The translations under genes were made by a program, and so were the position numbers. From Pristiophorus japonicus (taxonomy: Eukaryota), in NCBI RefSeq assembly GCF_044704955.1, contig NC_091994.1:27714001-27778000 (forward strand): a stretch of DNA of 64,000 bases, in the 5' to 3' direction. Below are positions 28,736 through 54,275 of the stretch, one piece after another. Every line of letters begins with the position of its first letter. Positions within the stretch are counted from its first letter, which is position 1. The notes under the pieces were generated by a model that saw only the letters and a list, made by a program, of their open reading frames with translations, was not told where the DNA came from and did no database searches.

Positions 28736-29229
28736 TCGGTTACCTTTGAGAAACAACAAGCACGCAGAAACAACTCCCGCAATAGTACCGAACAATGCAC
28801 TTTTATCTTTGCAGTGAAGTCACGCTATTCTCAATGAGAATAAAAACACAAGCACAATCCCAACGCGCTGCAGCTGGAAGACACTTTTCAAACGATTCAA
28901 AAAGGACCGAAAACAGTAGGTACTGAGGGAGCTTGAATCGGACTCCTTGACAGGACGAATTCCCCCCAGCACCTCAGCCCATGAAGAAACTCATTCAAAC
29001 CAGTCCACTCTACGTGGGCACCGCGTTAGGAGAAATACCGAGGCACTGTGTGGGCATCAGCAGCATCCCCCTGCATGCCCACCACACTGACAATCACCAT
29101 ACCTGCGATGCCGGATTGGCCGCGGAGAGCTGTGCAATGGGAATTAAGGACGCGCCGTTACATACTGTCCAGGATTGCTCTTTTCACTGAGGTGCTGTTC
29201 GCACCCTCCTCTCAGACCTGAAACATTCA

Positions 29230-29850
29230 CCACCCCCACCACACAATATGGCGGCCCGTCCTTCCGGTGCCGGGCTCGGCCGGGCCGACCGTTACCTTTG
29301 TGACGTCACGCAGATTCAAACCACTACAGGAAGTGCCTTGTTGTCATAGCGACGGAATCTCGCCCACCGCGCAGGGGCCTGGCCCCAGTCCCGGGCAACG
29401 CCATCACAATTCAATTCGATGTGGAAGCATAATTCAAATCTCCGATCCGACGGGCGCATTTTTTTTTCCTCACACACGGTAGCCTGGAATGTGGTGCGAG
29501 TTGCCGAAGGACGCACCGAGTGGGCGGGAGTTCCGGGCCAAGGGGGCGAGGGCGGCGCCGGGCCCCGAACACTTCCCGGGTTAGATCTCGCACTCAGGCT
29601 AACATGGCGGACGAGACGGTGGTGCCGCTGATGTTTTTGTTCCTCTTTCTGTTAATGAAACGCCGCGCCGAGTTTGAGAGCGCCAGCATCGAGAGGCGGA
29701 ACGACGCGCAGAGGAGGCTGAGAATGAGGCAGTATTTCCAGCAGCGCCAGAGGAAGATGATCTTGGTAGGGAAGGAGAGCGAGAGAGAAAAAATGTGTGC
29801 AGCGACACAAAGGCGAAAACTTCTTCTGACTGCCGGCCTGGGTTGAGTGC
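29230..29850. promoter_or_regulatory. CpG island, probable bidirectional promoter of FZR1 (-) and the Harbinger-derived gene (+)
   Basis: CpG-rich; YY1-like aatatggcggc (29245), ETS-like cttccggt (29261) and caggaagtg (29327), CRE tgacgtca (29301), RFX X-box-like gttgtcatagcgac (29340), CHR-like TTTGAA on minus (29315, 29433); minus-strand donor CAAAG|GTAACG at 29296 is a candidate FZR1 exon-1 end. Confidence 0.75.
29604..29765 (+). CDS. Exon 1 of Harbinger transposase-derived (ALP1-like) gene
   Basis: Strong Kozak aacATGG; MADETVVPLMFLFLFLLMKRR...RQRKMIL (54 codons) ends at TTG|GTAGGG, phase 0, in frame with the exon at 42775. Confidence 0.78.
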
Positions 29851-30364
29851 TGGGCAAATGTTATAGCTCTAACCCTGGGGGCCCGAACGAACAAGAGAAT
29901 AACCATTCAAAGCGGCCCCTCGGTAGTGCTGTTTTTCCAGCCTTAGCAGCCATAGCTGAAACTCAGCAGGAGTTTATAATCTCAGTCAGATCCGCAGTAT
30001 CAGAATGAATGCTGTAAAGTGAGTGACTTTGGCGGGCAAATATATTTTCTTTTTTTCGATTTTCGCTATTTCAGGGAGGAAAGTCTCAAATTAAATATAA
30101 CATTTTTTAAAAATACGAGGTTTGAAACACATTTAAACCTGTTTTTGAAATATTCCATAATTACGACTGGAATTGAGATGGGATTGTTGATTGCAATCAG
30201 TTTAGGAATTTTTTTTAGGCAGAGGGCTGTTTGCATACGCAATACTTTACCAGAAACAGTGCTGGAAGTAGAGACACCACAATAGTTTTTGAAAAGGAAA
30301 TCGATAAATATTTGAAAGGACACAAATAAAATATATGGGGAGAAGATAGACGAATGGGACTAAG

Positions 30365-31906
30365 TGCAGAGCTCTTTGTGGCAGATTTTAGGGAGCTAAG
30401 AAATAGATTAAAAAGCAGAACCTCAAAGGTAATAATCTCAGTGCCACGAGCTAGTGAGTATAGAAATAGGAGGACAGAGCAGAACAGCTGCAGAGATGTT
30501 GTTGGTGGGAGGGCTTTGGATTCCTGGGACATTGGGACTAGTTCTGGAGGAAGTGGGACTTGTACAGGTCGGACAGGTTGCACCTCAACAGAGCCAGGAC
30601 CAATATCCTCACTGGGGGTTTGCTGGTGCTGTTAGGTGCTGTTAAACTAATTTGGCAGGGGGATGGGCATCAGGATGTATTATTAGATGGGAAAAACAAA
30701 GTGCACAAAGGATTGGGAGAGAGAGATAGCACTGGAATAAGAAATAGTAAAATATTAGATGGGATCAGACTAACGGAATACAAGAAGGGTGTATTCTAAG
30801 ATGGGTTTACAGTGCATGTGTGTAAACATACAAAATATGGTAAATAAGGTTGCTGATGTGATAACGGAGTACCTGGCTCAAAAAAGGGCAGGATTGGGTA
30901 TTAAATGTTCCTGCATATAAGGTGTTCAGGAAAGATAGGGAATAAAGACAGGAGTTGGGGTGGCAGTATTGGTTAAGGAGAATGTTAGTGCTGGCGAGAG
31001 AGGATGTCCTGGAGGCGTCAAGAACAGAATCTATATGGTTAGAATTAAGAAATAATTGCCATTACACTACTAGATGTATCCTATAGGCCACCAACTAGTG
31101 GAAAGGATATAGAGGAGACAATTTTCAGTGAAATTGCAGAGAGGTGCAAGAACTATAGATATTGGGGAACTTCAACTATCCTAATATAGACTGGGATAGT
31201 AATTGTGTAAAGGGCATAGAGGGGGAAGAATTTCTGAAGTGTGTTCAGGTGAACTATCTTGATCAGTGCGTTTCCAGCCCAACGAGGAAGGAGGCATTGT
31301 TGGATCTGATTCTGGGGCATGATGTAGGGCAAGTGTCAGTAGGAGAATATTTAGGGAACTAAATATCATACGGTTTAGATTAGCTATGGAAAAGGACAGA
31401 GGACAATCTAGTGTAAAAATGCTTAATTGGAGGAAGGACAATTTCAGTGGGTTGAGAACAGATCTGGCCCCGGTAAATTGAAATCCAAGATTGGCAGGCA
31501 AAACTGTAATCAAACAATGGGCTACCTTTAACGAGGGGATGGTTGGAGAACAGTTGAGGTACATTCCCACGTGGGGGAAAGGTAGGTCAACCAAAGTCAG
31601 AGCTTCCTGGATGATGAAAGAGAGGCGAGAGTAAGGTGAAGCAGAAAAAGAGTGGGTATGACAGATGTCAGGTTGAGAATAAAGTGAGAATCAGGCTGAA
31701 TATAGCAAGTTCAGAGTGAAAAAGAAAATAAGAGGGGCAAAGAGAGAGTATGAGAATAGATTGGCAGCGAACATAAAAAGGAATTCAATTCTATTGGCAT
31801 ATAAATAGTAAAGCGAGGTAGGACTGATTACGAACCAAAAAGGAGACCTACGCATGGAGGCAGAGGGCATGGCTGAGGTACTAAATGAGTACTTTGCATC
31901 TGTCTT
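30365..31906 (+). mobile_element. CR1 LINE, 5' part (ORF1 remnant and APE endonuclease), split by the ERV
   Basis: DRLHLNRARTNIL (ORF1 esterase-like), GNFNYPNIDW...PTRKEALLDLIL (APE); ...YFASV continues as FTKEE at 40520. Confidence 0.88.
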
Positions 31907-32443
31907 TGTTAATTCGGATTCTTTTTCCCTCAATCTGTTTCAGCGAATACACTGACACACGAACACCAAAGCAGCTTATAACAAAGCAGTCTTTATTAAT
32001 TGTTTCACCGGCCGGGACTTATCAGAACAAAGGAACGCTCTCCCTCAGAGTGCGCCCACTTCCCTCGGACAAGCCCTGTTACAATGTAGGAGCGCAACAG
32101 TTATACACTTTCAGTACGTAATACAATTGAGGGACATTCAGTTCACCCTATCCTTTGTGATCCCACCTTCCTTTTGTCCACTCATGAGTCGATACCTGGC
32201 CTTCCTTGCCCAATTAGGTACGGGCAAGTGGTTATAGCAACTGTTTTGCACAAAGAACTTTCTCACCCATTGCCTGTAAATGTTACAATTTTACTGGCGT
32301 GACTAGTAACTAAGACCTTGAGCAAGTCTGTTATTTGTGCTGATGTTGTAACATTTGCAGTCTGACATTCTTTTAGTTATCCTTCCATGATTCCTTTGTT
32401 CACTTCACTGTCTCTATTGCTTATACATTTTCACACATTCTCA
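31907..32443 (-). repeat. ERV 3' LTR
   Basis: Direct repeat of 39983-40519 (about 13 differences by hand count); preceded on minus by polypurine tract aaatgggggaa; AATAAA on minus near 31992. Confidence 0.95.
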
Positions 32444-32479
32444 TTCCCCCCATTTATCATTCCATGATAACCCTGGTGA

Positions 32480-33845
32480 CTATTCCAGGAGTATCGCATT
32501 CATCCGTTCGCACTCTCTTTCCTGATCCTCCTTGTCGAGTAGGTCTTTAGTTTGCTGGATCATAACTCGGGAGCCCATGGCCACAAGAGGGTTTGCTAAC
32601 CTTGCCATCATGACTTTACAACAAAGGTTAAAGCAACCAATAAGCAACAGGTAATTATTACTACGATGAGAATAATTGCTCCATGCATTAGATACGATCC
32701 CCAGGATCCACCTAACAGCCAATCAAACCAGCCTACTCCTCCTGTAGGGGTGGATAACTTCTTTACCTCCCTTCTTATGTGATCAGCGAGATTGGTTATG
32801 TTTTCTGAATTATCGGGGATGTAAGTGCAACATTCAGATCCTATCAGGGCACATGTTCCGCCTTTCTCAGCTAACAGATAATTGAGGGCCATTCGGTTTT
32901 GTAATGCCACGGTCCGTATTGCTATCATTTCGGCCGTGATGCCCTCCAGAGCTTCAGCAGTATAGTTAGCTATCTGTTCCAATACCCTTTTTAGGTTCTG
33001 TACTTCATCCATGGTGCGTCCTATCCCGAATGGGAACATCATGACCCCAAAGAACCTTTTGGCGGGGGTGAGGGCTCGCCTGTGTCGGCTGGAGGCATGT
33101 GCTTCCGCCAGGGTACGTGTTTGCTGCACAAATGGAACCACATATCCCAAATAGCAGGACCCTGTCCATCGCCTAGGTAACCAGGGGTATGCCCTATGCC
33201 CACACACAAAATACATGCCGTTATACGCTGCCTTTTTATATATTGTGTTGGGGTTCCAAGACTGGGCCCACAGACCTCCACCTGTTTTATTCGGAAGGTG
33301 AGAGAAGATAGTGACTCGTGCACCTGTTGTGATGTTGAGGTTTAGTGGGCAATCGCTGTACCCTATGATATGTCCCTTTCTGCTGGTGTCATTTCGGGTT
33401 AAACATATGGTCCCGCTTGGCCTCCCGATCCCCGAGGTATTGGTCAGGACCAAGAATGGGGGTTCCTTTTTATGGTCATAGGGCGGTTGGTACCATCCCT
33501 GGAACGTTTGACTAATGGGGTAGCCAGCACTCTCCCACTCGGTGACGTCCCCGTGGTTGTCCACGCGGTAACGGTATGATGCTCCTCCTGCCCTCCGTGA
33601 TCCCTCTCTTGACCCGCCTTTCATACAGTCTCAGTTAGGGTCAGTGCAACGGGGCGCAAAGGAATTCCCCCTTTGGAACGTATAGGCATATGTGAGCACA
33701 CCCAGCAACTAGAAAAGTTCCCATTTCGCGCATAAACATAAGACATATATAGAAACGTGTTTACACGGAGTTCCTTTCGTTGTCTTGCCCCCTGTATGTT
33801 ATAAGCCGCCAACGCCATTATACTAAAAAGAATCCACAACCCCAT
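32480..33845 (-). pseudogene. env: Retroviral env (gamma-type), two frameshifts
   Basis: Signal peptide MGLWILFSIMALAA, CWVC (CXXC), furin site RHRR, fusion peptide, ISD LQNRMALNYLLAEKGGTC, CX6CC (CALIGSECC), TM helix; frame breaks near 33622 and 32640; splice acceptor ...atgttacAG near 34012. Confidence 0.92.
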
Positions 33846-34034
33846 AGCTATGGGTTAAGTGGATATCATCCAACGTCCTCTGGGCCCGTCAGGTTCCAAG
33901 AGTCCCAAGGACCCGGTTTGTCCAACGGGGAATTGGAGGTACACAACCTTCAGCAGCTCGTCTTTGCTTGCCCGAATGTTCAACTTATTCAGCTATGGGA
34001 TAGAGGAAGTCTGTAACATAAATATAGAGGATAG

Positions 34035-35156
34035 TTAAGGAGTGATAAGCTTGCAATGATGCAGGTGAACCCAGGCACTTCTCCCTTCAACCTTAGCTGC
34101 AGTGGGGGTAGTGAGTAACACCTGAAAAGGCTCCTCCCATCGTGGCTCTAATCCTTTTCGAATTCATTTCTTAATCAGGACATACTTCCCTGGTGCCACG
34201 AGGGACAATTCGGGCGAAACTGGGAGGTCGAGGTGAGCATCTCGAACTTGGTTGTGGGCTATTCGCAGAGCCTGAGTCAGGGAAAGAACATAGGTGGTCA
34301 TTTCCTCAGTCATGTGGTGGAACTGGACAGTGGAGGGGACATTCTGATTCCATGGGGTCCTAAGGGGCCTACCATAAATGACCTCCGCGGGGGTCAGTCT
34401 AGCCTTGCCGGTGGGAGTAGTTCAGATCTGGAATAGGGCTATGGGAAGGAGTTTGAGCCAATTGAGTCCAGTTGATGCTACCAGTTTTGCAAGCTTGGTT
34501 TTAAGAGTTTGATTAGCACGTTCAACTAATCCCGCAGCTTGGGGTCGGTAGGCACAATGCAGCTGCTGGTTAATGTTCATCTGGGAACAGAATTTTTTGT
34601 TAACTTGGCCAATAAAGTGAGGGCCATTATCGGAACTCAGTCGAGCTGGGATACCATATCTAGGAACAATTTCCCTCATTAACACCTTAACAACAGTTTG
34701 AGCCTTATTGTCCAGGGTAGGGTAAGCTTCGATCCATTTGCTAAACACATATTTGTAACACTGAACTCTTTGCAACTCAATGTCGTCCAACTGCAAGGTC
34801 TCAAAGGGACCTTCTGGTAGAGGCGTCTTACCCCAATCACAGGGGACTCCCTTCCCTGGATTATGCTGCTGGCAAACAAGGCAGCGACTACTGATGTTCT
34901 GGGCCAGCGCCTGGAGTCTAGGGTGCCACCAAGTGGCCAAAAGCTTGTCACTTGTTGTCCTTGCTCCACAATAAGTAGCAAAGTGCATACATTCAATAAC
35001 CCATAGGGCCAACTCTTCAGACATGCAAGTCTGTTCCGCGGGAGTGGTCCAGAGTTTAGAGACATTGTCATAAGTACATCCATAATCTTTCCACAACAGT
35101 TTATCTTTTTCAGGAGCGTCCTCCTGTGCTTTAATTACATCTTGGATGGTTGGCAT
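34035..35156 (-). pseudogene. pol: Retroviral pol, integrase domain only
   Basis: Zn-finger remnant HFATY...CLVC, catalytic core LQLD / SSDNG / GLVERAN, C-terminal [14 protein letters not shown]...WVHLHHCK; small deletion and frameshifts. Confidence 0.92.
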
Positions 35157-36110
35157 TGGTTTTTCCCGAGGCTAACTTATCTTTTGCAAAGTTTTAGTCT
35201 GACTCATCTTTAATCCATGCATGTCGAGGTCACTCCGTGAAATCGGAGGTCAGGGTTAGGTTGGGTTTCTGGATTCCCCACCGTGGATGCATTGGCTCTT
35301 TTGCCACAGGTGATGGTGCTATGGCTGTGCACTGTATTATCTGTCTCTGTCTGGTCCCGTTTTTAAAAAATCTCTTTCAGCTTATTTATCTTAGCCTTTT
35401 AACTCTTGAGTTTGTTTTGTTTGAGTATCTATTTCTTTATTGTATCAGGCAAGTATTATTACATAAGCTAGTTCTATTTTATTCTGACTATCCCACCATT
35501 TCCTTTATCTGTCAGGTGAGTCTTTATTCTATTAAGAAATCCAAATTAATAATGTTCAGTATAAAACGGCTGTCACTGGAAAGGGTAAACTCCTTTACAG
35601 GTTTGTAAGAAGAGCTGATGTCATTGCGTGACTTCACGTAATCATCTGAAAAAAAAGTCTTTGTGCCTTCAAAACTTGCTTAGAAATTAGGAATCCGTTA
35701 AACAGCAGAAATCATTAGTAAAGCCGTCATAATAAAAGTCTTCTCATCAGGAAAGGCAGCATTTTAGATTAAACTCCAAAATTTTTTTTTTAACTTCTAA
35801 TTCAAGTACTTGCCAAATAATTTTTTTTTAAAAAATTGATTTAAAACGAGACCACACATTTTTAATAGCTATTTGTTTACTGAAATTAAATTTCGTCATC
35901 AGCCTCGGTCAATGCAAAGCCAACCATTTGACTACGTAGTCTATCAATACCTTTCTCATTGTTTGCCTTCTCCTTAGAACAGTGGCTCCTGGTGAAAGAT
36001 TAGGTAATGAGTCTGTAACATTGCCTCAAAGCTCATATTGTGACAATAACATTGAAATGTGACTTGCAACATGTGTGAGAAAAGGGTTTCAAACTGAGAT
36101 AAGGGCTACC

Positions 36111-36321
36111 TGTAATATATTTGCTTCATGGGTTCTTTGCTTAAGAATTCATAGCAGCACATTGCTATTAAGAACGAGTTGGTTTATTAGCAAAAGGTTT
36201 AATACTACACATTACCAGTTCATCCACTAGGCTCACAACCACCTGCCTCATCGTGGATCCCCCGAACCCAACTGGCTGGGGTTTTATTGAGTCTTGTGAA
36301 TATCACGTGACTGGCTAAGCC
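36111..36321. mobile_element. Possible truncated LTR of a different LTR element inside the ERV
   Basis: Begins tgtaat; minus-strand AATAAA motifs; composition differs from the flanking ERV; truncated by CR1. Confidence 0.35.
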
Positions 36322-37994
36322 TCTCAACAAGATTGTTAATTCGTCCTTTATCATTACACATCACCCAGTCTAGGATGGCCAGCCATCTAGTTGGTTCCTC
36401 GACATATTGGTCTAGAAAACCATCCCTAATACACTCCAGGAAATCCTCCTCCACCGCATTGCTACCAGTTTGGTTAGCCCGATCAATATGTAGATTAAAG
36501 TAGCCCATGATAACTGCTGTACCTTTATTGCATACATCCCTAATTTCTTGTTAGAAACAAGCCTGAAGGCTCTGAGTCTCAATGCGAGGAGCATTCATAA
36601 TAAGGGGGACGAATTAACTGCGCAGATAGCTGTTAACGAATATGATGTAATTGGGATTACGGAGACATGGCTCCAGGGTAACCAAGGCTGGGAATTCAAC
36701 ATCCAGGGGGATTCAATATTCAGGAAGGATAGACAGGAAGGAAGAGGAGGTGGGGTAGTGTTACTGGTTAAAGAGGATGTTAATGCAATAGTAAGGAAGG
36801 ACATTAGCTTGGATGATGCGGAATCTATATGGGTAGAGCTGCGAAACACCAAAGGGCAGAAAACGTTATTGGGGGTAATGTATTGAGGTGGATAGAGAAC
36901 TGGTTGGCAGACAGGATGCAAAGAGTGGGAATAAACCAGTCCTTTTCAGAATGGCAGGCAGTGACTAGTGGGGTACTGCAAGGTTCAGTGCTGGGACCCC
37001 AGCTATTTAAAATATACATTAATGATTTAGACGAAAGAATTGAATGTAATATCTCCAAGATTGCAGATGACACTAAGCTGGGTGGCTATGTGAGCTGTGA
37101 GGGGGATGCTAAGAGGCTGCAGGGTGACTTGGATAGATTAGGTGGATGAGAAACTGCAGATGCAGTATAATGTGGATAAATGTGACGTTATCCACTTTGG
37201 TGGCAAAAACAGGAAGACAGATTATTATCTGAATGGTGACAAATTAGTAAAAGGGGAGGTGCAACGAGACCTGGGTGTCATGGTACTATATCAGTCACTG
37301 AAGGTGGGCATGCAGGTACAGCAGGCAGTAAAGAAAGCAAATGGCATGCTGGCTTTCATAGCGAGAGGATTTGAGTATAGGAGCAGGGAGGTCTTACTGC
37401 AGTTGTGCAGGGCCTTGGTGAGACCACACCTTGAGTATTGTGTGCAGTTTTGTTCTCCTAATCTGAGGAAGGACGTGCTTGCGATTGAGGGAGTGCAGCG
37501 AAAGTTCACCAGACTAATTCCCGGGATGGCAGGACTGACATATGAAGAAAGACTGGATCGACTAGGGTTATACTCACTGGAATTTAGAAGAATGAGAGGG
37601 GTGAGAGGGGATCTCATAGAAGCATATAAAATTATGACAGGACTGGAAAGGTAAGATGCAGGATAAATGTTCCCGATGTTGGGAAGTCCATTAACATGGA
37701 GTCATAGTCCAAGGCTAAGGGGTAAGCCATATAGGACCGAAATGAGGAGAAACTTTTTCGCCCAGGGAATTGTGAACCTGTGGAATTCTCTACCACAGAA
37801 AGTTGTTGAGTCCATTTCGTTGGATATATTCAAGAGGGAGTTAGATGTGGGTAAGGAGGTCAGGGGGTATGGAGAGAAGGCGGGAGTGAGGTACTGAAGT
37901 TGCATGATCAGCCATGATCATATTGAATGGTAGTGCAGGCTCGAAGGGCTGAATGGCCTGCTCCTGCAACTAGTTTCTATGTTTCTATGTTTCT
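36322..37994 (+). mobile_element. Rearranged CR1 LINE inserted in the ERV (inverted 5' piece plus internal deletion)
   Basis: 36322-36552 is APE C-part on minus; 36553-36882 is APE N-part on plus (NARSI, GITETWL), fused directly to RT (WIENWL, ADDTKL); tail ctatgtttctatgtttc. Confidence 0.9.
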
Positions 37995-39962
37995 CAGAGG
38001 TCCCAGTGGAACTCTTGGTACGTTTCTCTTGCGCGCACTCTTTTTTAAGACGTCTACGGGTTTAACATGTCCTCCTTCTGTCAATGAGAGTCCTAATTTA
38101 GTGGCGTTTTCCTGCCAACTTGACAGAAGTGATGCATCTTTTCAAACTGCAGTGGAACTTTCTCATAATTTCTTTTTCACGGCAAATATTTTTTCAATTA
38201 AGCCAATATCTTTTTCACGGCAAATATCAGCTAGTATTTAATAAGTTATGTCCTTTTCCATCTCAGAACACTTTTTTTTCCTTTCAGCACCTATTTAGTA
38301 CGTTACGTTTTTTTTTAAAGATCTCCTTTCTTCAAATTAGGTTTTGTATTTGTTTTCTTTCAAGGTTGCGTCTTTTTTTTCCGTCTTTTCCATAACTAGA
38401 GGGAAGTCTGGCATGTAGGCTGAGAGGGCTGCTTTTCGTTATCTCAATTGTTCCAGTTTCAAGGTCGTTACCATGTCTCTTAGAAACTGCTAAAGCTTGC
38501 TGTTTTTAACATTTTTCAAAAGTCCCTTTTACACCTTCGCAGATAGCTCGCCACTCGCCCAGGAGTTTGACCTGATCCCTGAAGGTATTTCTAGATTGTT
38601 TCCAAACCTTTTAGTTTTATATCTCCTATTTTCTTTTAGAGATCAGATTTAATATAATTTTTTTTTTAATCCACCTCAGTATTTTGCTGTGCCTTCTCTG
38701 AATATCTCAAAATCCCAATCCAAACTTTGTAATTTCAATCTTTATTTAAAACTTTTTTTTTAAAAGGCATTCTTTATCTCATTCCGAGACTAAATTTATG
38801 TCTTTCAATCCAATGTAATCAATCATTGCATGTTTTCTTTCGACAAGTAAGTGAGCGTGTCAAATAAATTCTTTTTTTTTAACCACCGGGACCATGTATT
38901 TTTTTATCTTTTACTCAACAAACCTATCCTTTGTGCATTTCCTAGCTCTGTAACTTATCATCCGAATATATCCACACCTGCGTTCCTAACTTAAAATGTA
39001 ATTCAATAAGGTTCACACTTTTAAACTTCCCACAAACAGGACAACACTACGAAGGGTTAAAAAAACTTTCACTCTGTTTGAAAAAGTGGGTGGAGCTAAA
39101 ACAAACCACAACTCCCCGGTTTCCCAAACAGGCTTTCATTCTGCAGTCAAAATCACACAAGCACTTCTCATTTAAAACAGACGTTCACAAAAGTCTCTCT
39201 TCTTTCCAATTAATTGTTTTGGCCGGCTCTATTTTTGGATCCATGATCTTTCAGGGAATTCGTAGTTTTATCTAAATTACCCATCCTCGCGTTGCCCCGC
39301 GGAGGATCAGGGTCCTAATTAGTCCCGATTGTCCCCGCGTTGCCCCGCGGTGGAATAAGTAATCTTATCCAGAGCCTAGGTGGACCAAGTGATATACAAG
39401 ATCGACGCCGTACCTGGAATAAGTACAATTTTAAATTTACACAGTCCCGCGTCGCCCCGCGGCTTAATTTTACGTAATTCCCTAACCTCCGCGTCATCGT
39501 GCGGTTCGCGTCGCCGCGCGATTGTCTATCCCTCCGCATCGCCGTGCGGTTTTCCTGTTCGCATCGCCGCGCGATAAGCCTTACTTAATTTGTTCTAGGT
39601 TCCAGATTTCCCTATCCTAAGCCTTACTTAATTTGTTCTAGGTTCCAGATTTCCCTATCCTTCCGCGTCGCGATTTAAATCCAATCAGTGCCTAGACGGG
39701 CCAAGTGATATACAAGGTCGACGTCACACCTGACTTGGACACTTATTTCCTAAGTTTAGACGGTATTCGCCAGATTGACCTGGATCTCGTTCAGACACTA
39801 CCTGAGAACCAGCGAGTGGCCAAACTTTCCTCAGACTTTTGGAACTGAAGGAAACTGAAGTGGTATTTTAAAGGGTACTCACTCCAGTGGCCACTTTCCT
39901 CCCGTCTCGTCCAAGGCTAGTCTGGCTCTTAATTCGCAAGTTTTCGGCAGTCGTCTGTTGAG

Positions 39963-39980
39963 ATCCCACTTCTGACACCA
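39963..39980 (-). promoter_or_regulatory. Primer binding site complementary to tRNA-Leu
   Basis: Minus strand TGGTGTCAGAAGTGGGAT, 2 nt after the 5' LTR, complementary to the 3' end of vertebrate tRNA-Leu(CAA). Confidence 0.9.
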
Positions 39981-39982
39981 AA

Positions 39983-40519
39983 TGTTAATACGGATTCTTT
40001 TTCCCTCAATCTGTTTCAGCGAATACACTGACACACGAACACCAAAGCAGCTTATAACAAAGCAGTCTTTATTAATTGTTTCACCGGCCGGGACTTATCA
40101 GAACAAAGGAACGCTCTCCCTCAGAGTGCGCCCACTTCACTCGGACAAGCCCCATTACAATGTAGGGGCGCAACGGTTATACACTTTCAGTACGTAATAC
40201 AATTGAGGGACATTCAGTTCACCCTATCCTTTGTGATCCCTCCTTCCTTTTGTCCACTCATGAGCCGATACCTGGCTTTCCTTGCCCAATTAGATACGGC
40301 CAAGTGGTTATAGCAACAGTTTTGCACAAAGAACTTTCTCACCCATTGCCTGTAAATGTTACAATTTTACTGGCGTGACTAGTAACTAAGACCTTGAGCA
40401 AGTCTGTTATTTGTGCTGATGTTGTAACATTTGCAGTCTGACATTCTTTTAGTTATCCTTCCGTGATTCCTTTGTTCACTTCACTGTCTCTATTGCTTAT
40501 ACATTTTCACACATTCTCA
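39983..40519 (-). repeat. ERV 5' LTR
   Basis: Direct repeat of 31907-32443, adjacent to the PBS. Confidence 0.95.
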
Positions 40520-42150
40520 TTTTCACCAAGGAAGAAGGTGCTGCCAAAGACATAGTGAAAGAGGAGGTAGTGGAGTTACTGGATGGGATAAAAATTGTTA
40601 GAGGAAAGGTACTAGGAAGGCTGGCTGCACTTAAAGTAGATAAGTCATGAGGACTAGATGGGATGCTGAACAAAGTTCAGGTGGAAATCGCGGAAGTACT
40701 GGCCCATAATCTTCCAATCCTCCTTAGATACAGGAATAGTGCCAGAGGACTGGAGAATTGCAAATGTTATACCCTTGTTCAAAAAAGCGTGTAAGGATAA
40801 ACCCAGGCCAGTTAATTTAACCTCAGTAGTGGTGAAGCTTTTAGACATGATAATCGGGGACAAAATTAATCGTCATTTGGACAAGTGTGGATTAATTAAG
40901 GAAAGCTAGCATGGATTTGTTAAAGGCAAATCGTGTTTAACTAACTTGATTGAGTTTTTTGATGTAATAGAGAGAGGCTTGACAAGGGCAATGCAGTGGA
41001 TATGGTGTACATGGATTTCCAAAAGGTGTTTGATAAAGTGCCACATAATAAGCTTGCCAGAAAAGTTGAAGCCCATAGAATAAAGGGGACAGTGGCAGCA
41101 TGGATACAAAATTGGCTAAGTGACAGGAAACTGAATGGTGATGAACGGTTGTTTTTTGTACTAGAGTGGTGTTCCCCAGGGGTCAGTACTGGGAGCACTG
41201 CTTTTCTTGATATATATTAATGACTTTGACGTGGGTGTACAGGGCACAATTTCAAAATGTTCAGATGACCCAAAATTTGGAAGTATAGTGAACATGAGGA
41301 GGATAGTGATAGACTTCAAGAAGACATAGGCAGGCTGGTGAAATGGGCAGACATGAGACAGATGAAATTTAATGCAGAAAAATGCAAAGTGATATATTTT
41401 GGTAGGAAGAACAAGAAGAGGTAATATAAACTGAAGGATAGAATTCTAAAGGGGGTGCATGAACAGATAGACCTGCGGGTATATGTGCACAAATCATTGA
41501 AAGTAGCAGGGTAGGTTGAGAAAGTGGTTAAAAAGCATAGAGGATATTGGGCTTCATAAATAGAGGCATAGAGTACAAAAACAAGGAAGTTAAGATGAAC
41601 CTGTATAAAGCACTGGTTTGTCCTCAGCTGGAGTATTGTGTCCAATTCTGGACACTGCACTATAGGAAGGATGTGAAGGCCTTAGAGAGGGTGTAGAAAA
41701 CTTAGGAGAATGGTTCCAGGGATGAGGAACTTCAGTTACGTGGATAGATTAGAGAAGGTGTGGTTGTTCTCCTTGGAGCAAAGGAGATTTGATAGAGGTG
41801 TTCAGTATCTTGATGGATCTAGATAGAGAGAAACTGTTCCCATTGGAGGAAGGGTCGAGAACCAGAGGACACAGATTTAAGCTGATTGGCAAAAGCACCA
41901 AAGGTGACATGAGGGAAAACTTTTATTACGCAGCGAGTGGTTAGGATTTGGAATGCACTACCTGAAAGGGTGGTGGAGGCAGGCTCATGGCTTTCAAAAG
42001 GGAATTGGATAAGTACCTGAAGGGGGAAAAAAACGCTTGGCTACTGGAAATGGATGGGGAGTAGGACTCGCTGAAGCGCTGTTGCAGAGAGCCGGCACGG
42101 GCTCGACAGGCTGAATGGCTTTCTGTGCTGCAACCATTCTATGATTCAGA
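40520..42150 (+). mobile_element. CR1 LINE, 3' part (continuation of 30365-31906)
   Basis: RT fragments YMDFQKVFDKVPH, ctggagtattgtgtccaattctgg; 3' end ttctatgattc. Confidence 0.9.
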
Positions 42151-42774
42151 AGACTGGAATAGGTGTCATGGGCCAAATGCCCTCCCATGCTGCACAATTC
42201 CATCATTTTATCTCAAATACCTGCTATGCCCTACAGCTGTAGCATTTCTTCTTTAAGATTATTGAGAAACTGGATCAGTGATGTAGGGAGACTGAGTGGC
42301 ACAGAGTAACTGGCTACTCTCATTTGGGATTGTGGTTTAAATTCATTCTCTACGCGCTGACTGTAAGGGTCCTATGTTAAATGAATCTTGGTTTAGTAGG
42401 GGTGCCCTTAAACTGGATTTAATTCAGTTATTTTTCTTTTTCTTTACCGTATTGTCAGGACAAATGGAGAGAACTTTGTGCTACAGTTAGCTGTACAACA
42501 TGTGACCTGGAATTAATTGATTCTGGCATCGGGTGCCTGAAATGAATAAGTATTCAGTTTCTCTGCATCAGCATTCCCTCTTTTGAATACAGTCGTAGCA
42601 AAGATTTCCTTTTACATGTTATGGTACCAGTACACCTCAGGAAGCAGAAACTAGTTGTAGCAGCAAGCGGCCTTTGTAATATAACTTTTAAATAAATATC
42701 TCTCTTAAATCCTGCAGTATTACTGAATGTTTAAGGAGTACATTTGTAAAGGCATTCTTCTTTGATGTTTTCAG

Positions 42775-43890
42775 ATGGTGATGGCACGTGGAGGTAGTAG
42801 GTGTAACTGTCGTACAAGGATCTGGTGTAAGCCGAGAAGCTCCGATTGGTGGGAACGTGTGGTTATGAAGGAATTTCAGCCAAATGATTGGCTGGAAAAT
42901 TTCAGAATGTCTAAGGGAACATTTTTCCACATCTGTAATAAGCTGAAGCCCATGGTTTCTCGCCGAAATACTCACCTTCGTCCCGCACTGCCCCTGGAAA
43001 AGAGAGTCGCAGTGGCATTTTGGCGTCTTGCTACCAATGTAGAATATAGAACTATTAGTCATTTGTTTGGGATAGGCCGATCAACTGTGTGTAAATGTGT
43101 AAGAGAAGTATGTTATGCCATTGTGTCTCTCTTAAAGCCTCTGTATCTTAGGATGCCTTCTAATCAAGAATTTGAAATTATGGCTCAGACATTGGGTAGA
43201 CGGTGGGATTTTCCCCAATGCGTTGGTGCTATTGATAGTTGCCATATACCCATCATTGCCCCTCCACAATATCACAAAGATTACTTAAATAAAAAGGGAT
43301 GGCATTCAGTTGTGTTACAAGGTGTAGTTGACGACACTGGGAATTTCTGGGATGTCTGTACTGGATTTTCTGGGAGTTCTCTTGATACAAAAATTCTGAG
43401 GAATTCTGATCTATGGCGAACGGCGACCGAAGGAAGGTTGTTCCCTGACTGCTCGAAAAACATTATGGGAACACCAGTGAAATGCCTACTGATAGGCAGC
43501 TGCTCTTATCCATTACAGGAATGGCTCCTGAAGCCATACTCAGAAACAGGAAGACTATCACAGCATCAGCTTGTGTTTAACTACAGATTAAGCCAAGCTC
43601 ACACTGTGATAGATGATGCATTTGGACGACTCAAAGCACGTTGGCAGTGTCTTCTCAAGAGGAATGACTGTAGCCTTGAACTGATTCCAACAATGATCAC
43701 TGCCTGTTGCATTCTTCACAATGTCTGTGAAAAACATAATGATGGTTTTAATAACGAATGGCTGAGTGTTCTTGGGCAGGAGGAATTTCCTCAGCCGAAC
43801 CAAATAGTGACAGATAGAAAGGTTGACAGTCAAGCTGAAGAAATTCGTCAGGTATTGTCTGCTTACTTTATGGGTCTGGAGGAAAGCTAG
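42775..43890 (+). CDS. Exon 2 of Harbinger transposase-derived (ALP1-like, DDE_Tnp_4 fold) gene; about 425 aa with exon 1
   Basis: Uninterrupted 371-codon ORF: RSSDWW, NFRMSKGTF, HTH LFGIGRSTV, GAIDSCHIPI, YLNKKGWHSVVLQGVVD, AFGRLKARW, ACCILHNVC; ttttcAG acceptor immediately upstream; no TIRs seen. Confidence 0.93.
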   Translation: MVMARGGSRCNCRTRIWCKPRSSDWWERVVMKEFQPNDWLENFRMSKGTFFHICNKLKPMVSRRNTHLRPALPLEKRVAVAFWRLATNVEYRTISHLFGIGRSTVCKCVREVCYAIVSLLKPLYLRMPSNQEFEIMAQTLGRRWDFPQCVGAIDSCHIPIIAPPQYHKDYLNKKGWHSVVLQGVVDDTGNFWDVCTGFSGSSLDTKILRNSDLWRTATEGRLFPDCSKNIMGTPVKCLLIGSCSYPLQEWLLKPYSETGRLSQHQLVFNYRLSQAHTVIDDAFGRLKARWQCLLKRNDCSLELIPTMITACCILHNVCEKHNDGFNNEWLSVLGQEEFPQPNQIVTDRKVDSQAEEIRQVLSAYFMGLEES

Positions 43891-44021
43891 ATGTTATCCT
43901 TTAAGTTTTAGGTTGTAATAGTAGCATTTATGGAAACTGTAAATAATGTATGATAATTTTTCAATATGGTTTTCATCACTATGACTAGGAATGCCTCGAT
44001 ATTGTATACTGATGCTATTTC

Positions 44022-44027
44022 AATAAA
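44022..44027 (+). terminator. Candidate polyadenylation signal of the Harbinger-derived gene
   Basis: AATAAA 132 nt after the stop codon, followed by U/GU-rich sequence. Confidence 0.55.
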
Positions 44028-44699
44028 ACACACATTGTCTCCTTTCTTATTGTGATAGTGGTAAAGCTTATTGCAATTGTTACTATACAAATGGCATCTT
44101 GCAATAATTCGGTTAAACTTGCAGCTGCTGAAAGCTGAATAGCAGCTGGCGATTCATGCTTAATGTTTTTTGTTTGTATTCTCTGTTTAAGCTAAATTTG
44201 ATTTAACAGCTGTTGCAGTTGATTAGATGCAGCAGTGATTATTGGAAAAGGCCTTTTATCCAGAAACTTAAAGATTAGAAAATCAAAAGACAACAATAAT
44301 GAATTCTGATGAGGATAAAATGGAAAATAAAAATAAAATGAAGAAACAGAAATGCATAAATAAACTACCAAAGAAAAACACACAAAGCATGGGTAAACTT
44401 AAAATGTTAGAATAAAAACTTTAAAAGCCACCATTAAAGACAAGTAGGGCAAAGAAAAACACACTAGAAAGGTAAGACAGCAAAAGTAGCCTAAAGGACC
44501 AATGGATGAAACAAAGTTGACAGGAAATAATTTATTGATTTGTTAAGGATAGAGGTGATTTCCAACTACAACTAGTGATGGAAGGTAAAATGCAAATTAA
44601 CTATGCTTGTATACTCATTTGAGATCCAACACCGAAGAAGTAAATAAAAACTTGATGTGAGACAGTTCAGAAGAGTAACAGATGTTTCTTTGTGGAATT

Positions 44700-47600: not shown

Positions 47601-47766
47601 AAAGAGTTGTAAATGCCTTAGAATGTGGTTGAACCCTCCCACACATATGATGGGTTGGTCCAACCCCCCCCCCCCCCCCAGTAAAACTACATGGATTGGG
47701 CCAATGGGCCCCGGAGGATTCTGGGTGATCAGTGTCATGTGGCTCCCAGAACGCGGCGGGAAGGAA

Positions 47767-48040
47767 ATGTTTAACGGGATGGCGGTTGAGTCGATCGGGA
47801 GGACGCTGGCGGACGTGTCGAAGCCGCTGAAGGAGCGTTTCCGGGCGCTGTTTACCCTCCGCAACCTGGGCGGCTCGGCCGCCATCGACTGGATCTCCAG
47901 AGCGTTTGACGACGAGTCGGCGCTGCTGAAGCACGAACTGGCTTACTGCCTGGGGCAGATGCAGGACGAGCGCGCCATTCCCGTGCTGACCCAGGTGCTG
48001 CAGGACCGCGGCCAGGAGCCCATGGTCCGGCATGAAGCAG
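47767..48040 (+). CDS. DOHH: DOHH (deoxyhypusine hydroxylase) coding exon 1
   Basis: [14 protein letters not shown]...[14 protein letters not shown]...[15 protein letters not shown]...EPMVRHEAG; HE motifs 1-2; CAG|GTGAGG donor; start chosen by alignment to the vertebrate DOHH N-terminus. Confidence 0.95.
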
Positions 48041-48149
48041 GTGAGGCGCCAGGGCCCTGACCCTGGCAACACCGCCAGGCGGCAAATCTGCTCTTTGAAA
48101 TAGCAATCAACCACATTATAGATGGGCCGTTTTGGGCTTCCTTCCAACT

Positions 48150-49303
48150 ACATTAAGAAAGCAAATGGCATGTTGGCCTTCATAACGAGGGGATTTGAGT
48201 ACAGGGCCTTGGTGAGGCCACACCTGGAGTATTGTGTACAATTTTGGTCTCCTAACTTGAGGAAGGACATTCTTGCTATTGAGGGAGTGCAGCGAAGGTT
48301 CACCAGACTGATTCCCGGGATGGTGGGACTGACATATCAAGAAAGACTGGATCAACTGGGCTTGTATTCACTGGAGTTCAGAAGAATGAGAGGGGATCTC
48401 ATAGAAATGTTTAAAATTCTGACGGGTTTAGACCGGTTAGATGCAGGAAGAATGTTCCCAATGTTGGGGAAGTCCAGAACCAGGGGTCAGTCTAAGGATA
48501 AGGGGTAAGCCATTTAGGACTGAGATGAGGAGAAACTTCTTCACCCAGAGAGTGGTGAACCTGTGGAATTCTCTACCACAGAAAGTTGTTGAGGTCAATT
48601 CACTAAATATATTCAAAAAGGAGTTGGATGTAGTCCTTATTACTAGGGGGATCAAGGGGTATGGCGAGAAAGCAGGAATAGGGTACTGAAGTTGCGTGTT
48701 CAGCCATGAACTCATTGAATGGCGGTGCAGGTTCGAAGGGCCGAATGGCCTACTCCTGCACCTATTTTCTATGTTTCTACATAACTATTGAAAATGAGGA
48801 AAAGGCGATTGGCATGTTGCAAGGGTCTGGAGTGCAGGGGCAAGGAAGTCTTACTTTCATTGCACAAGGCTTTGGTGAGACCACACCTGGGAGGTGATCT
48901 CATTGAAACATATAAGATTCTGAGGGAGATTGACTGGGTAGCTGCTGAGAGGCTGCTTTCCCTGCCTGGAGAGTCTAGAAGCAGGGAGCATGGTCTCAAG
49001 ATAAGGGGCTGGCCATTTAGAATCATTGAATCATAAAACATTATGACTGAGGCTGAGATGAAAAGGAATTTCTCAGAGTTGTGAATCTTTGGAATTCTCT
49101 ACCCCAAAGAGCTGTGGATGCTGAGTTGTTGAGTATATTCAAGACTGAGATCGATAGATTTTTGGGCACTAAGGGAATCAAGGGATATGGGGATAGGGCA
49201 GGAAAGTGGAGTTGAGGTCGAAGATCAGCCATGCTATTATTGAATAGCAGAGCAGATTCGAGGGGCCATATAGCCTATTCCTGCTCCTAATTCTTATGTT
49301 CTT
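48150..49303 (+). mobile_element. Two adjacent CR1 3' fragments in DOHH intron
   Basis: LVRPHLEYCVQFW, SLEFRRMRGDL; tails at about 48783 and 49303. Confidence 0.9.
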
Positions 49304-49949
49304 TAGAGGTCAAATTCTGTTTGATCGCTCCTGTGCAGTGCCTTGGGATGTTTTACTACATTAAAGGCACTAACTAAATGCAAGTTGTTCCTACATTACA
49401 ACAGTGAATATACTTGAAAAGTACTTCATTGGCTGTAAAGCACTTTGGGAATGGAATTGAAAGGTGCTATATAATCTTCTAGTGCGTGTAGTTACACTGT
49501 GTCTGGGGTTGACAGACCTGAGGTAGGGTGATTTTATTTCAGAATATATAAAGGGGTGGATCTGTTGTGAGCAAATATATGTTGTGACTCTGGTTCCTGT
49601 GCAACTATCTATCTATTCACCTGCGTCTGTATATGTACTGGTTACATTTTTAATGTTCAGAATCTCTTGGATTCTCAGTTACCATTAAAAATTCTGATTA
49701 AATGGACAATGTGGGGGACTTCATAGTTTACAACAGATAACATGAGAACTTCCCAAAGTGTTTTCCTGCCCACAAGGTACTTTTTAAAACATAGTCGCTG
49801 TTGTTGTAAAAAAGAAAGAAAGACTTGCATTTTATACAGCGCATGAAGCCGCATCAATTGCAAAATCTGGGCCAATGTGTTTGTTCAGATTGCTAAACAT
49901 ACAAATATATGAAAATGACAGACAAGTAAAGACGCATTAATCAATCTAG

Positions 49950-50680
49950 CCAGTCCCATATAATTGTAGTGCCTGGCGCATCACAATACAGACACTCCCC
50001 ATCTGCCTGGAGCCATGTAATATCCAGGGAGAGGTGAAAAAACAGATACAAACTCTGAGCCAATTCGGAAAAACGCCTGGAAAATTCCTTTGATCCCTTA
50101 AGGTGCGCAAAACTAGTCTAGGAGATCGCATAGACCCTAATCTATATCGGATACCTCCTGCTTGTCATTATTTTATAAACCTCAATCAAATTACCACAGT
50201 CTACACTTGTCTAAAGTATACAGACCCACCTCTTTGAGCCTATCTGGGAAACTAAGGTGTTTCAAACTGAGAATTAATCTTGTGGCCCCCCTCTGCACAT
50301 TTTTCAGAGTCTCAATATCCCCCACAATGTGAGGAGAACAAAACTGGACACACTATTCAAACTGAGACCTAACCAAGGTCTTGTACAAGGACAAAATGAT
50401 TTGCTTTATTTTATAGTGAACTTTCCAATGATTACACCCAAGAACAATTGTTGCTTCAGCTATAGCTTCACAGCATTGGTCACGAACCTTTAGGAAAACA
50501 TACACATCTATTTCTTTCACTATTTATTTGTTTTAATTCTGTTGCCTGTAGAGTGTAAATGTATTTGTTTTTTTATCTGTCCACGTGCATAACACTACTT
50601 TTCTAAGTTAACCAGCATTTGCCAAACATGGACCCATTTTTTTTAACACATCTAGATCTGCTTTCAATAGTTGAGCATCC
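49950..50680 (-). mobile_element. Decayed CR1-like fragment
   Basis: Minus strand reads LYKTLVRSQFE.CVQF-like motif. Confidence 0.6.
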
Positions 50681-50697
50681 TGTAAGTGTCAGCAGTA

Positions 50698-50830
50698 CCT
50701 CAGTGGGTAGCACACTCTCGTCTGAGTCAGAAGGTTGTGGGTTCAAACCCCATTCCAGAGACTTGGGCATATAATCTAGGTTGACATTCCAATGCAGTAC
50801 TGAGGGAATGCTGGGCTGTCAGAGGTGCCT
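50698..50830 (+). mobile_element. tRNA-derived SINE 5' fragment
   Basis: ctcagtgggtagc (A box), gggttcaaacccc (B box), cagtactgaggga; homologous to 54590-54720. Confidence 0.75.
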
Positions 50831-50998
50831 GATAACTGGTCTCCAAGCAGATTCAGATCTTTTGACTACAATTTTCTGCCTGTGGTCATTCAGCCTATTC
50901 ACTATCCACTGCAGCAGATAACCACTGAACATCCAAACTAATTTGTTTTTTCTGGGAACTATTTTCATTGAATTTTTTTTGTTATGCTGTTATTTCAG

Positions 50999-51075
50999 GT
51001 GAGGCATTGGGAGCTATCGGAAAACCAGAGGTCCTTGAAACATTGAGATATTACTCTCGTGATCCTGTGATAGAA
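50999..51075 (+). CDS. DOHH: DOHH coding exon 2
   Basis: (G)EALGAIGKPEVLETLRYYSRDPVIE; tatttcAG and GTAAGA; 77 nt. Confidence 0.96.
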
Positions 51076-51849
51076 GTAAGAATCTTTTACATCATATTAC
51101 AGAGGCCTGTTTTAATTTTCAACAGATCATGCATTGCCAGCATGCATTGCTTTAAAAAGAATGAACTTTAAAATGTACACTATAATTTTCTTGTAAAAAA
51201 AATAGTAAGTCACTGACAGCTTTTTAGTTTGCGTTATTCATGCCTTCAATTTCACTGAGTGGATGGTAGATTAGTTTGCTCTTAATGTAAAGTAAAACTA
51301 ATTAATTCTTCTGAAGCTAATAAAATCCAATAATGCCTCTTCTGTTTAGCTAGGTAGCAGTATAGTATATATTTAAATTGTTGTTTCCTCCCCCCCCCCC
51401 CCCCCCTCCCATGTGCAAATCATGGGCTTGGTCCCATTTATTACCACTCTCTGATGTGTGTAGATCAGAGTGACCAATCTTTCGAAGCTTAAAAGCTGGA
51501 AAAGAAACTTGTTTTTGGGAAAAAGCCACGAGAGTTTCAGCCCTTTTATGTTACAGCTTGGGAAGGTGACTTGGTTATTGGCTGGTTCAATTCATCCCCT
51601 AGCAAAGAAAGGGTACAGGAGATAAAGACCTGATTGCTATGAAATGGGTTTGGTGGTAGGAGTAGCTAATGGGTTTATGGATAGTTTGATGTAAAATGCC
51701 CTCTTGGTATATTATGTCCTCCCCTAGTATTGCAGCCAAGCCGCAGTTCTAGGTCATACATTTGTTGCAGAGTTTGGTGCTTTGTTGAGCCTCACAGCTT
51801 CAGAACTATTTTTTATAGAAAAGTAGTGCTGGAATAGTGATATTTATGT

Positions 51850-52760
51850 AACATAAGAACATAACAAATAGGAACAGGAATAGGCCATTCGGCCCCTTGA
51901 GCCTGCTCTGCCATTCAATATCATGGCTGATCTACCCGCAACTCCACTTTCCTGCACTATCCCCATATCCCTTGATTCCCTTAATATCCAAACATATATT
52001 GATCACGGTCTTGAATATACTCAACGACTGCGCCTCCACAGCCCTCTGGGGTAGAGATTTTTAAAGATTCGCCACCTTCTGAGTGAAGAAGTTTCTCCTC
52101 ATCTCATTCCTAAATGGCCGACCCCTTATTCTGAGACTGTGACCCCTGGTTCTAGATTCTAGCCAGAGGAAACATCCTTCCTGCATTGACCCTGTCAAGC
52201 CCTGTAAGAATTTTGTATGTTTCAATGAGATCACGTCTCATTCTTCTTAACTCTAGAGAATATAGGCCGAGTCTACTCAATCTCTCCTCATAGGACAATC
52301 CCCCATCTCAGGAATCTGTCTGGTGAACCTTTGTTGTACTCCCTCCATCGGCAAGTATATCCTTCCTTGGGTAAGGAGGCCAAAACTGTACACAATACTC
52401 CAGGTGTGGTTTCACCAGGGCCCTATATAATTGCAATAAGACATCTTTACTCTTGTACTCAAATCGTCTTGTAATACAGGCCAACACACAATTTGCTTTC
52501 TTAATTGCTTGCTGTACCTGCATGTTAACTTAGTGATTTGTGTACAAGAACATCCATTTCCCTCAACACCAACATTTTCCAATCTCTCTCCATTTGAAAA
52601 GTACTCTGCTTTTCTACTTTTTCTACCAAAGTGGATAACTTCATATTTTTCCACATTATATTCCATTTGCCATGTTCCTACCCATTCACTTAGCCTGTCT
52701 ATAATCCCCTTGAAGCCTCTTTGCATCTTCCTTACAACTTACATTCCCACCTCTCCTTTG
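51850..52760 (-). mobile_element. CR1 LINE fragment
   Basis: LYRALVKPHLEYCVQFW on minus; acataagaacata tail. Confidence 0.9.
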
Positions 52761-54275
52761 TCTTCTCTTCGCCCACCACACACTATTACCGTTGTTGAAC
52801 TTTCCTACCCAACGGGAACGATTTCACTTCTTAATGGGCTTCAAAAGTGTCATGCTGACCTGTTTGATCTGCCAGCAAGGACCTGATTTAACAGCTGTTG
52901 TCTTTTTGTTACTGGATCCCGATTGGGAGCTATTGATTCAAGTTTCTTACTGGTCAAGTTTACAGCAGTACACAATTGCGAAATGCATGTCCTGATCTGT
53001 GTTCAGTTGGATGATCTCAGCCAGGGCAACATGGAACACTGCCTCAGACTAAGGAGGAAAAATAAATTTAAGCCAGTGTTCCCACATCTGAATGCTATCC
53101 AGTGACCACAGTAAAGCACGAGATCTGAAACCACATTTTTGAATTGCTTGTGTTCAGTGCACATGTTTCAATTTCCAGAAGAATCTTCATGATGTATTTC
53201 AAATTCAGGTGCGTTTGCATCAGCTGGTCCAAATGAATGATGCAATTAGATCTCTAGAATTTGGGAAAGTTATCAGCTTTACACAGTCCTGCTTATTGAT
53301 CTATCTATAGCAATGGCAGAACGTTTCTCTAATAGTAATGTGGCTTTCTAAATAAAAGTTCCAATACAAGGTTTCAAGAATTTCTTTCACAGAGCAGTCA
53401 TCAGACACAGTAAGCAAAAGTACTGCTGGCTGAGGCTTGTGCTCAACATCACAAGACTTCACCAATGTAAGTTTTAAATACATAAGCAAGGAGGCAAAGA
53501 TACATTTATATGTCATTGGTTAGACTATAGTTGGATTATTGTGTCTGCTTTGGTTGACCCATTATAGAAGGGGTATTCGAGCCATGGAAAAGCTGCAATT
53601 TAGATTTACAAGGACAATATCTGTCACAGACTGACAGCACATCATTCTGATGAGAGTCTAGTAAAAAACAAAGCTTTTTAGTATGTTCACTAAACAGAGA
53701 AGGTTAGATCTAATAGCAGCTGTAGGGCAGTGTGCTCACAATTCAACTGCCGAGATCCCATATCTGCATCGACAGGTGATGTTTGAGTTGGGTCTTGTGG
53801 TGCTGCTGGAATCTGAATCTATAGCTATGGATATGAGTGAGTATGAGAGCAAAGCCCTGTTTGTACTCATGTTGGTGGGGGGGGGGGGGGAGAAAGTAGA
53901 AATGGAGAGAGAGAGAACACAACGTATTCTCAAGTTGCTGTTTGTCAACAAAAAGTTGGTGATTTTTATGTTGGGGGGGGAAAAAGTACAAAATTGTGGT
54001 CTTCATCTTGGCAAACGAAGACGACCCCTTTAGGGCTGTTTTACTACCATTACAGAAAGTATCAGCCCCAGCAGTAATATACCCAATAGATCAACAAGGT
54101 GCTGGCCGAATCCAATAACTTATGGCAGTTTATTTTGATGGAATATAAAAAAGAAAGTGAAGACCACTGTTTTAGGGAGACTGGATAGTTTGAATTTATT
54201 TTTGATATCTCACAATCTGATTAAGTGGCTTGCCTACATTTCTTTTAAATGGTTAATTTATATTGCACTTTTTAG

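Follow-up and report, generated by a model that had tools for sequence, protein, structure and literature searches.

A two-exon gene between FZR1 and DOHH

In the stretch of 64,000 nucleotides from Pristiophorus japonicus analyzed here (the window; contig NC_091994.1), we observed a gene of two exons and 425 codons whose product derives from a PIF/Harbinger transposase. The gene lies between FZR1, an upstream neighbor in divergent orientation on the opposite strand, and DOHH, a downstream neighbor on its own strand. Its exons meet in phase 0 at the 29765/42775 junction, and the CpG island around its start codon probably acts as a head-to-head promoter for both this gene and FZR1. The parts of the gene, in window coordinates, are as follows.

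28900-29900: CpG island with the start codon; CpG observed/expected 0.73-1.11, against 0.42 for the whole window; GC 0.57-0.59
29604-29765, plus strand: coding exon 1; 162 nt, 54 codons (residues 1-54); ATG in the context AACATGG, donor GTAGGG
29766-42774, plus strand: intron; 13 kb, phase 0, GT-AG, packed with long interspersed nuclear element (LINE) fragments and an endogenous retrovirus (ERV)-like provirus
42775-43890, plus strand: coding exon 2; 371 codons and TAG (residues 55-425), preceded by a pyrimidine tract and CAG
43891-44040, plus strand: 3′ untranslated region; AATAAA at 44022; four covering contigs stop at 43996-44040

This structure bears out what a preliminary description of the window had proposed from its letters, namely an intact spliced open reading frame (ORF) of 54 and 371 codons with phase-0 GT/AG borders, a Kozak ATG in a CpG island, a 13-kb intron full of decayed insertions and an AATAAA downstream. 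Its placement of the gene between FZR1 and DOHH is likewise upheld, by matches to FZR1 in the PDB and by tblastn with pigeon DOHH. In human, these two genes are presumably head-to-head neighbors with no such gene between them.

Exon 1 encodes an N-terminal helix, hydrophobic in its first part and basic in its second, that is predicted to span residues 6-59. Exon 2 supplies a helical/helix-turn-helix (HTH) region around residues 128-178 and an RNase H-like DDE_Tnp_4 domain, with profile matches to DDE_Tnp_4 (PF13359, E 6e-30) and, weakly, to HTH_Tnp_4 (PF13613, E 3e-5). With DDE_Tnp_4, the HTH upstream of it and the RNase H-like transposase fold all present, the protein is PIF/Harbinger transposase-derived. 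A model of the orthologue from Heterodontus, whose protein is 94% identical to that of P. japonicus, has a predicted local distance difference test score of 88.9 and shows the long helix (6-59), a flexible linker, the helical/HTH region and the RNase H-like core. It resembles piggyBac (Z 9.0, root mean square deviation 5.1 over 232 aligned residues) and Tn5 (Z 8.7), and by this prediction the transposase-like fold is intact. A sequence search of the PDB with the family profile found no relative.

No pair resembling terminal inverted repeats (TIRs) brackets the gene among the 25 longest of the 119 inverted-repeat pairs at 27.5-47.5 kb, in agreement with the earlier statement that TIRs are missing. 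No Myb/SANT ORF2 occurs among the ORFs of at least 100 residues between the gene and its neighbors, as the preliminary description had also noted; a weak Myb-type frame at 20.9-21.1 kb belongs to a different, broken element.

Contigs of four sequencing runs from two studies run unbroken from 42774/42775 to 43996-44040, and three of the four bear 101-127 additional letters upstream of exon 2. Because the runs carry no RNA label and exon 1 is outside the compared stretch, these contigs offer a hint of splicing rather than a view of the joint. Unnamed Logan proteins contain peptides of both exons on contigs of 1.7-4.5 kb. The bin at 42338-42591 is uncovered in the four runs, and no contig joining exon 2 to DOHH occurs among those listed; we used neither as evidence. 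The organism that matches best is represented by three runs, and in one of them three letters differ at 43502-43506, so that residue 297 is Ser and not Cys; Ser is the state of other sharks, and the difference may reflect an allele or a related species.

Conservation across jawed vertebrates

The gene is single-copy in the 5.9-Gb P. japonicus genome: among the best 110 of 48,008 candidates, which were scored, the gene itself matches at 100% and the other 109 are 25-31% identical. The genome is rich in Harbinger copies, with 89,387 first-look candidates in a PF13359 search (150 scored), and these resident copies belong to another lineage that branches far from the gene in the tree. Over 255 codons of exon 2, the ratio of nonsynonymous to synonymous substitution rates (dN/dS) against one contig of another organism is 0.095 (p 2e-9), computed from 31 of the 41 differences (23 synonymous, 8 nonsynonymous). 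Were the 10 unlisted differences all nonsynonymous, dN/dS would rise to 0.23. The codon comparison thus indicates that the gene is under purifying selection. Copy number and dN/dS had both been named in the preliminary description as checks on its idea of host co-option, and both came out in its favor, with dN/dS far from 1.

A protein search gave 464 matches, 120 of which were listed, and a second, based on a profile built from 14 rows of tetrapods and coelacanth, scored 7,999 candidates and yielded 71 matches. The gene has orthologues in sharks, skates, sawfish, chimaera, coelacanth, ray-finned fish, caecilians, salamanders, frogs, turtles, a gharial and birds, so that the gene extends well beyond the "some fish lineages" to which it had been assigned; protein clusters cover sharks, skates, sawfish, chimaera, sturgeons, paddlefish, carps, turtles and many birds. 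An exhaustive HMMER scan (best 150) added 11 rows, of 143 new ones, that are nearer to the orthologues than to outside relatives, among them the frog genera Ranitomeya and Gastrophryne. Identity over exon 2 declines with evolutionary distance: sharks, skate and chimaera reach 85-94%, whereas the values are 63-68% for coelacanth, sturgeon and gar, 50-58% for zebrafish, halibut, caecilian, axolotl, turtle, gharial and parrot, and 38% for one frog. Shark and chimaera proteins are 88% identical. The exon 1 peptide is 72-93% identical in seven chondrichthyan orthologues and 45-60% identical in coelacanth, sturgeon, gar, zebrafish and halibut. A search for longer fused forms returned five matches, four of them bird models with long N-terminal extensions and one an unrelated fusion.

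No mammal-named orthologue appears among the 120 listed of the 464 matches or among the 71 profile matches, some rows of which are unnamed, and no squamate-named orthologue appears among the matches listed, both squamate rows falling outside the orthologue clade. These absences concern the annotated proteins listed rather than genomes, and it is at that level that the earlier claim of absence from mammals holds. We infer that the gene was lost in mammals and squamates.

Trees were built from hand-picked subsets of 49 rows (IQ-TREE) and 39 rows, and a larger tree omitted 6 of 122 rows; they include two plant relatives, and HARBI1 and ALP1 sequences are absent from them. In the 49-row tree, all 21 orthologue rows form one clade with support of 100/100. 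This clade divides into chondrichthyans and bony vertebrates, groups tetrapods and ray-finned fish each together, and recovers amphibians, turtle plus archosaurs and teleost subgroups within it, so that the gene tree largely matches the species tree. Teleosts carry two copies, the second and faster of which (in carps, knifefish and salmonids) branches at the teleost base. In Danio aesculapii the two copies are on separate long contigs, and the pair would fit the teleost genome duplication. Varanus P0263, Gekko P0270, hagfish P0085 and the unnamed P0322 and P0364 were considered as divergent orthologues and rejected, since they fall outside the clade. Rows P0288, P0315, P0335 and P0355 are nearer to the orthologues than to outside relatives, and their best matches are teleost rows.

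The position of the intron and the downstream neighbor are conserved as well. Of 18 gene-model pairs compared, 12 have alternative or short forms that diverge exactly at the equivalent of the 29765/42775 junction and 6 are uninformative; the former come from sharks, rays, turtles, birds, carp, perch-like fish and sturgeon. In the chimeric gene model Labeo P0429, residues 1-442 are identical to the second teleost copy and residues 452-704 are DOHH, and the model Tinamus (tinamou) P0260 likewise fuses the gene with DOHH. Together with the window, these two models put the gene directly before DOHH, and in the same orientation, in a shark, a carp and a bird. In addition, the percomorph orthologue cluster (P0052) also contains GNA11 proteins, hinting at a chimeric model in which gna11b adjoins the main teleost copy; a record linking the two was not found.

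Because the gene is single-copy and under purifying selection, follows a tree near the vertebrate phylogeny, keeps its intron position and remains linked to DOHH, we are all but certain that it is a domesticated Harbinger transposase, that is, a host gene. The same five lines support the host co-option put forward in the preliminary description, and the best reading overall is an ancient domestication separate from HARBI1.

The presumed catalytic site and a proposed role

Alignment places the presumed catalytic triad at the following codons.

43234-43236, plus strand: D208, the first presumed catalytic residue, kept
43498-43500, plus strand: S296, replacing the second presumed catalytic Asp; Ser in six of six chondrichthyan rows
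43612-43614, plus strand: D334, replacing the presumed catalytic Glu; Asp in five of six chondrichthyan rows, His in one

With D208, S296 and D334, two of the three presumed catalytic residues are gone in P. japonicus, a degeneration that had escaped the preliminary description. The D-D-E triad is intact in 24 of 93 orthologue rows, compared with 28 of 33 outside relatives, all 28 of which have Asp at position 296; it survives in none of the 6 chondrichthyan rows and in 3 of 63 main-copy teleost rows. Residues conserved in transposases have been altered around it: H257 is kept in 1% and R345 in 0% of orthologue rows, and nearly every orthologue, even in lineages that keep D-D-E, has substitutions at G209, K228, H257 and R345. 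Conservation is highest at residues 81-100 and 121-160 (0.82-0.86) and 341-360 (0.83), the strongest stretches overall being 81-160 and 341-380; the catalytic strands score 0.63-0.74. A homodimer prediction scored 0.58 against 0.68 for its control, and we did not use it either way.

Our overall reading, to which we give a probability of roughly 0.6, is that this single-copy, presumably spliced, Harbinger-derived host gene became fixed beside DOHH in an ancestor of jawed vertebrates and likely encodes a non-cutting adaptor that works with a Myb/SANT partner on chromatin. The adaptor function itself we favor by a little, because the fold and the N-terminal half are strongly constrained, the catalytic site has been let go in several lineages, and Myb-partnered transposases, ALP1 and HDP1 provide precedents. 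The gene would be transcribed from the CpG island that it seems to share with FZR1. The N-terminal helix/HTH half of the protein could then bind a Myb/SANT partner, in the manner of HARBI1-NAIF1, ALP1-ALP2 and HDP1-HDP2; this partner would carry the protein into the nucleus, and the pair would be recruited to a chromatin complex. In Harbinger elements, a Myb-like protein binds the N terminus of the transposase and imports it into the nucleus, and HARBI1 and NAIF1 retain this interaction (PMC9392472). Two other reports describe ALP1, whose triad is broken, as joining Polycomb repressive complex 2 (PRC2; PMC4671723) and HDP1-HDP2 as joining an acetyltransferase complex (PMC9710019).

Several points weigh against this reading. 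The triad positions derive from known motifs and alignment conservation (the 28 of 33 outside relatives) and not from a solved Harbinger structure, none having turned up in the PDB sequence search. D-D-E is intact in coelacanth, sturgeon, bowfin and gar and in every turtle/crocodilian row (6) and every bird row (5), so that loss of catalysis is not family-wide. The Myb/SANT partner is putative, and the role of the gene is deduced from sequence and a predicted structure. The dN/dS estimate comes from a single contig of a single other organism. In the 49-row tree, the coelacanth is placed with ray-finned fish and the two holosteans are not monophyletic. Linkage to DOHH beyond P. japonicus depends on the two chimeric annotations, and linkage on the FZR1 side was examined in P. 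japonicus.

The kept triads lend themselves to a different account, which we think unlikely, whereby the protein is still a nuclease where D-D-E is kept (in coelacanth, sturgeon, bowfin and gar, and perhaps in turtles and birds), whereas sharks, most teleosts and caecilians each turned it into a pseudo-nuclease on their own. D208/D296/E334 is intact in those 24 rows, 11 of which also keep D258 (the turtle/crocodilian and bird rows have Asn there), and the holding of presumed catalytic sites over hundreds of millions of years suggests constraint. Slow-evolving lineages keep most of their residues anyway, however, and G209, K228, H257 and R345 are altered in these lineages too. Repeated loss of the triad also shows that the conserved function does not require cutting.

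It is equally doubtful that the gene serves in defense, as a dominant-negative transposase that restrains the movement of Harbinger elements by sequestering Myb proteins or by poisoning transpososomes. In favor of this, the P. japonicus genome holds very many Harbinger copies, and Harbinger elements are reported missing from mammals (PMC9392472), where the gene was not found among the matches listed. Yet the scored resident elements are merely 25-31% identical to the gene and belong to another clade, and slow evolution is at odds with an arms race. Birds have few DNA transposons, and conservation there is strong; the gene was also not found in squamates among the matches listed.

That the gene is HARBI1 itself, or a paralogue of HARBI1 from whole-genome duplication, is very improbable, although "putative nuclease HARBI1" is the label of many database rows and the tree does not place HARBI1. 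Since the same proteins are elsewhere called "ALP1-like" or "uncharacterized," these names are automatic. HARBI1 has been reported throughout jawed vertebrates, cartilaginous fish and mammals included (PMC9392472), and yet the present gene has no mammal-named row among those listed in either search; moreover, the matches listed include transposases of fish and invertebrates whose D-D-E is intact. We take HARBI1 to be 349 residues long and to lie next to ATG13. The probable separateness of the gene rests on the missing mammalian matches, the transposases among the nearest matches and this length and locus of HARBI1; the earlier assertion that the gene is not HARBI1 rests on the first of these and on general features of HARBI1. 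An ATG13 family search intended to locate HARBI1 gave no match, and a PF13359 search for HARBI1 was swamped by transposon copies. Over 1.2 Mb of contig C14 near matches resembling F2, midkine/pleiotrophin and AMBRA1 (the last presumably AMBRA1 itself), we found only broken elements and no HARBI1. At 92.86-93.52 Mb of that contig, the next frame after the AMBRA1-like exons is that of a dual-specificity phosphatase and not HARBI1 or ATG13, suggesting that the human AMBRA1-HARBI1-ATG13 order is not kept.

A still-mobile or recently inserted transposon, for which the intact frame and a transposase-like length and fold might speak, is ruled out by orthologous position and copy number unless full assemblies disagree, as the single copy, lack of a bracketing TIR-like pair among the longest inverted repeats, degenerate triad, dN/dS near 0.1, species-tree phylogeny and conserved neighbor all attest.

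Related genes and the surrounding window

Despite its origin in the same superfamily, the domesticated gene differs from HARBI1 in having no mammalian orthologue among the matches listed, apparently in its 425 residues with a long N-terminal helix and in its FZR1-DOHH locus, and in its nearest relatives, zgc:113227-type transposases from fish and invertebrates. Those of fish are 42-46% identical to it and equal in length and N-terminal layout, but they branch apart from the orthologue clade and retain D-G..H-D..G-D..R..E. The "ALP1-like" N-terminal region that the preliminary description had singled out is general to this transposase lineage. Like Arabidopsis ALP1 (with ALP2 and PRC2) and HDP1 (with HDP2), the gene has a Harbinger transposase origin, a degenerate triad and a single intron near the 5′ end (PMC4671723), and it is likely a Myb-partnered adaptor; unlike them it is of independent animal origin, and the two plant rows of the tree do not group with it. 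ALP1 and HDP1 act in chromatin complexes; for the vertebrate gene such a complex is putative. It also resembles the insect PIF-like genes (DPLG1-7, APLG, LPLG, BPLG), which are transposase-only domestications defined by synteny, purifying selection and the loss of TIRs and copies, according to PMC9710019, but it is a vertebrate gene and much older, and no linked MADF/Myb gene was found beside it.

A literature search, whose scope excluded subscription papers and supplements, found no published description of the gene, and the passages of PMC9179366 and PMC10027918 consulted describe no such gene; lists of genes lost in mammals, such as that of PMC10208646, may include it. Databases carry the gene under automatic names only. 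PMC9392472 names HARBI1 as the only vertebrate gene on the Harbinger transposase side and describes a systematic screen that compared human proteins with transposons, so that a gene lost in mammals lies beyond its reach. The present gene would be the second of this origin in vertebrates, retained ever since jawed vertebrates arose. It is a candidate partner for Myb-type MSANTD/NAIF1 proteins, its family provides a natural series of lineages with and without the catalytic triad, and its presence in zebrafish, axolotl and birds opens it to direct study there by knockout and pull-down.

Three further groups emerged beside the orthologue clade. Rows P0277, P0293, P0302 and P0263, from a caecilian, two frogs and the Komodo dragon, form a second cross-species clade (100/100) and, by sequence, a candidate further domestication; the triad of P0263 is degenerate. 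Sturgeon and bowfin rows P0105, P0281 and P0415 form a clade of their own (100/100), likewise a candidate on sequence grounds. A near-identical protein in two hagfish genera (P0085 and P0230), with a D-G-E triad and outside the gene's clade, is a possible independent cyclostome domestication. A tentative and rather improbable extension is that non-mammalian vertebrates hold a hidden set of domesticated Harbinger transposases, unseen by human-anchored screens, of which the FZR1-DOHH gene is the oldest and the first two clades are further candidates, with a host-controlled nuclease persisting in coelacanth, sturgeon, gar and perhaps birds and pseudo-nucleases arising independently in sharks, teleosts and caecilians.

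The neighboring genes were located as follows.

11942-12010 and 3603-3728, minus strand: first two coding exons of FZR1; PDB matches to Fizzy-related protein, E 2.5e-6 and 7e-19
47767-56992, plus strand: coding exons of DOHH; tblastn with pigeon DOHH, 68-74% identity; HEAT_PBS match

DOHH contigs start directly past an AG at 47748-47749 (window 47749-47805), and no clear CpG promoter was seen between 44 and 47.5 kb; the first exon of DOHH might begin at the 29-kb CpG island. At about 17.7-21.4 kb, probably within the first intron of FZR1, lies a second Harbinger element, which is broken and belongs to a different family. It has transposase fragments on the plus strand, a 14-nt inverted subterminal pair at 17982/21259 and the weak Myb-type frame at 20.9-21.1 kb, on the minus strand (PF13873, E 0.0011, below the cut-off); it is only 24-36% identical to the gene's orthologues. 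The ERV-like provirus in the gene's intron lies on the minus strand at 31907-40521, between two 539-nt long terminal repeats that are 97.6% identical. It carries env (TLV_coat) and integrase fragments, is interrupted by LINE pieces and is tolerated by the host exon structure.

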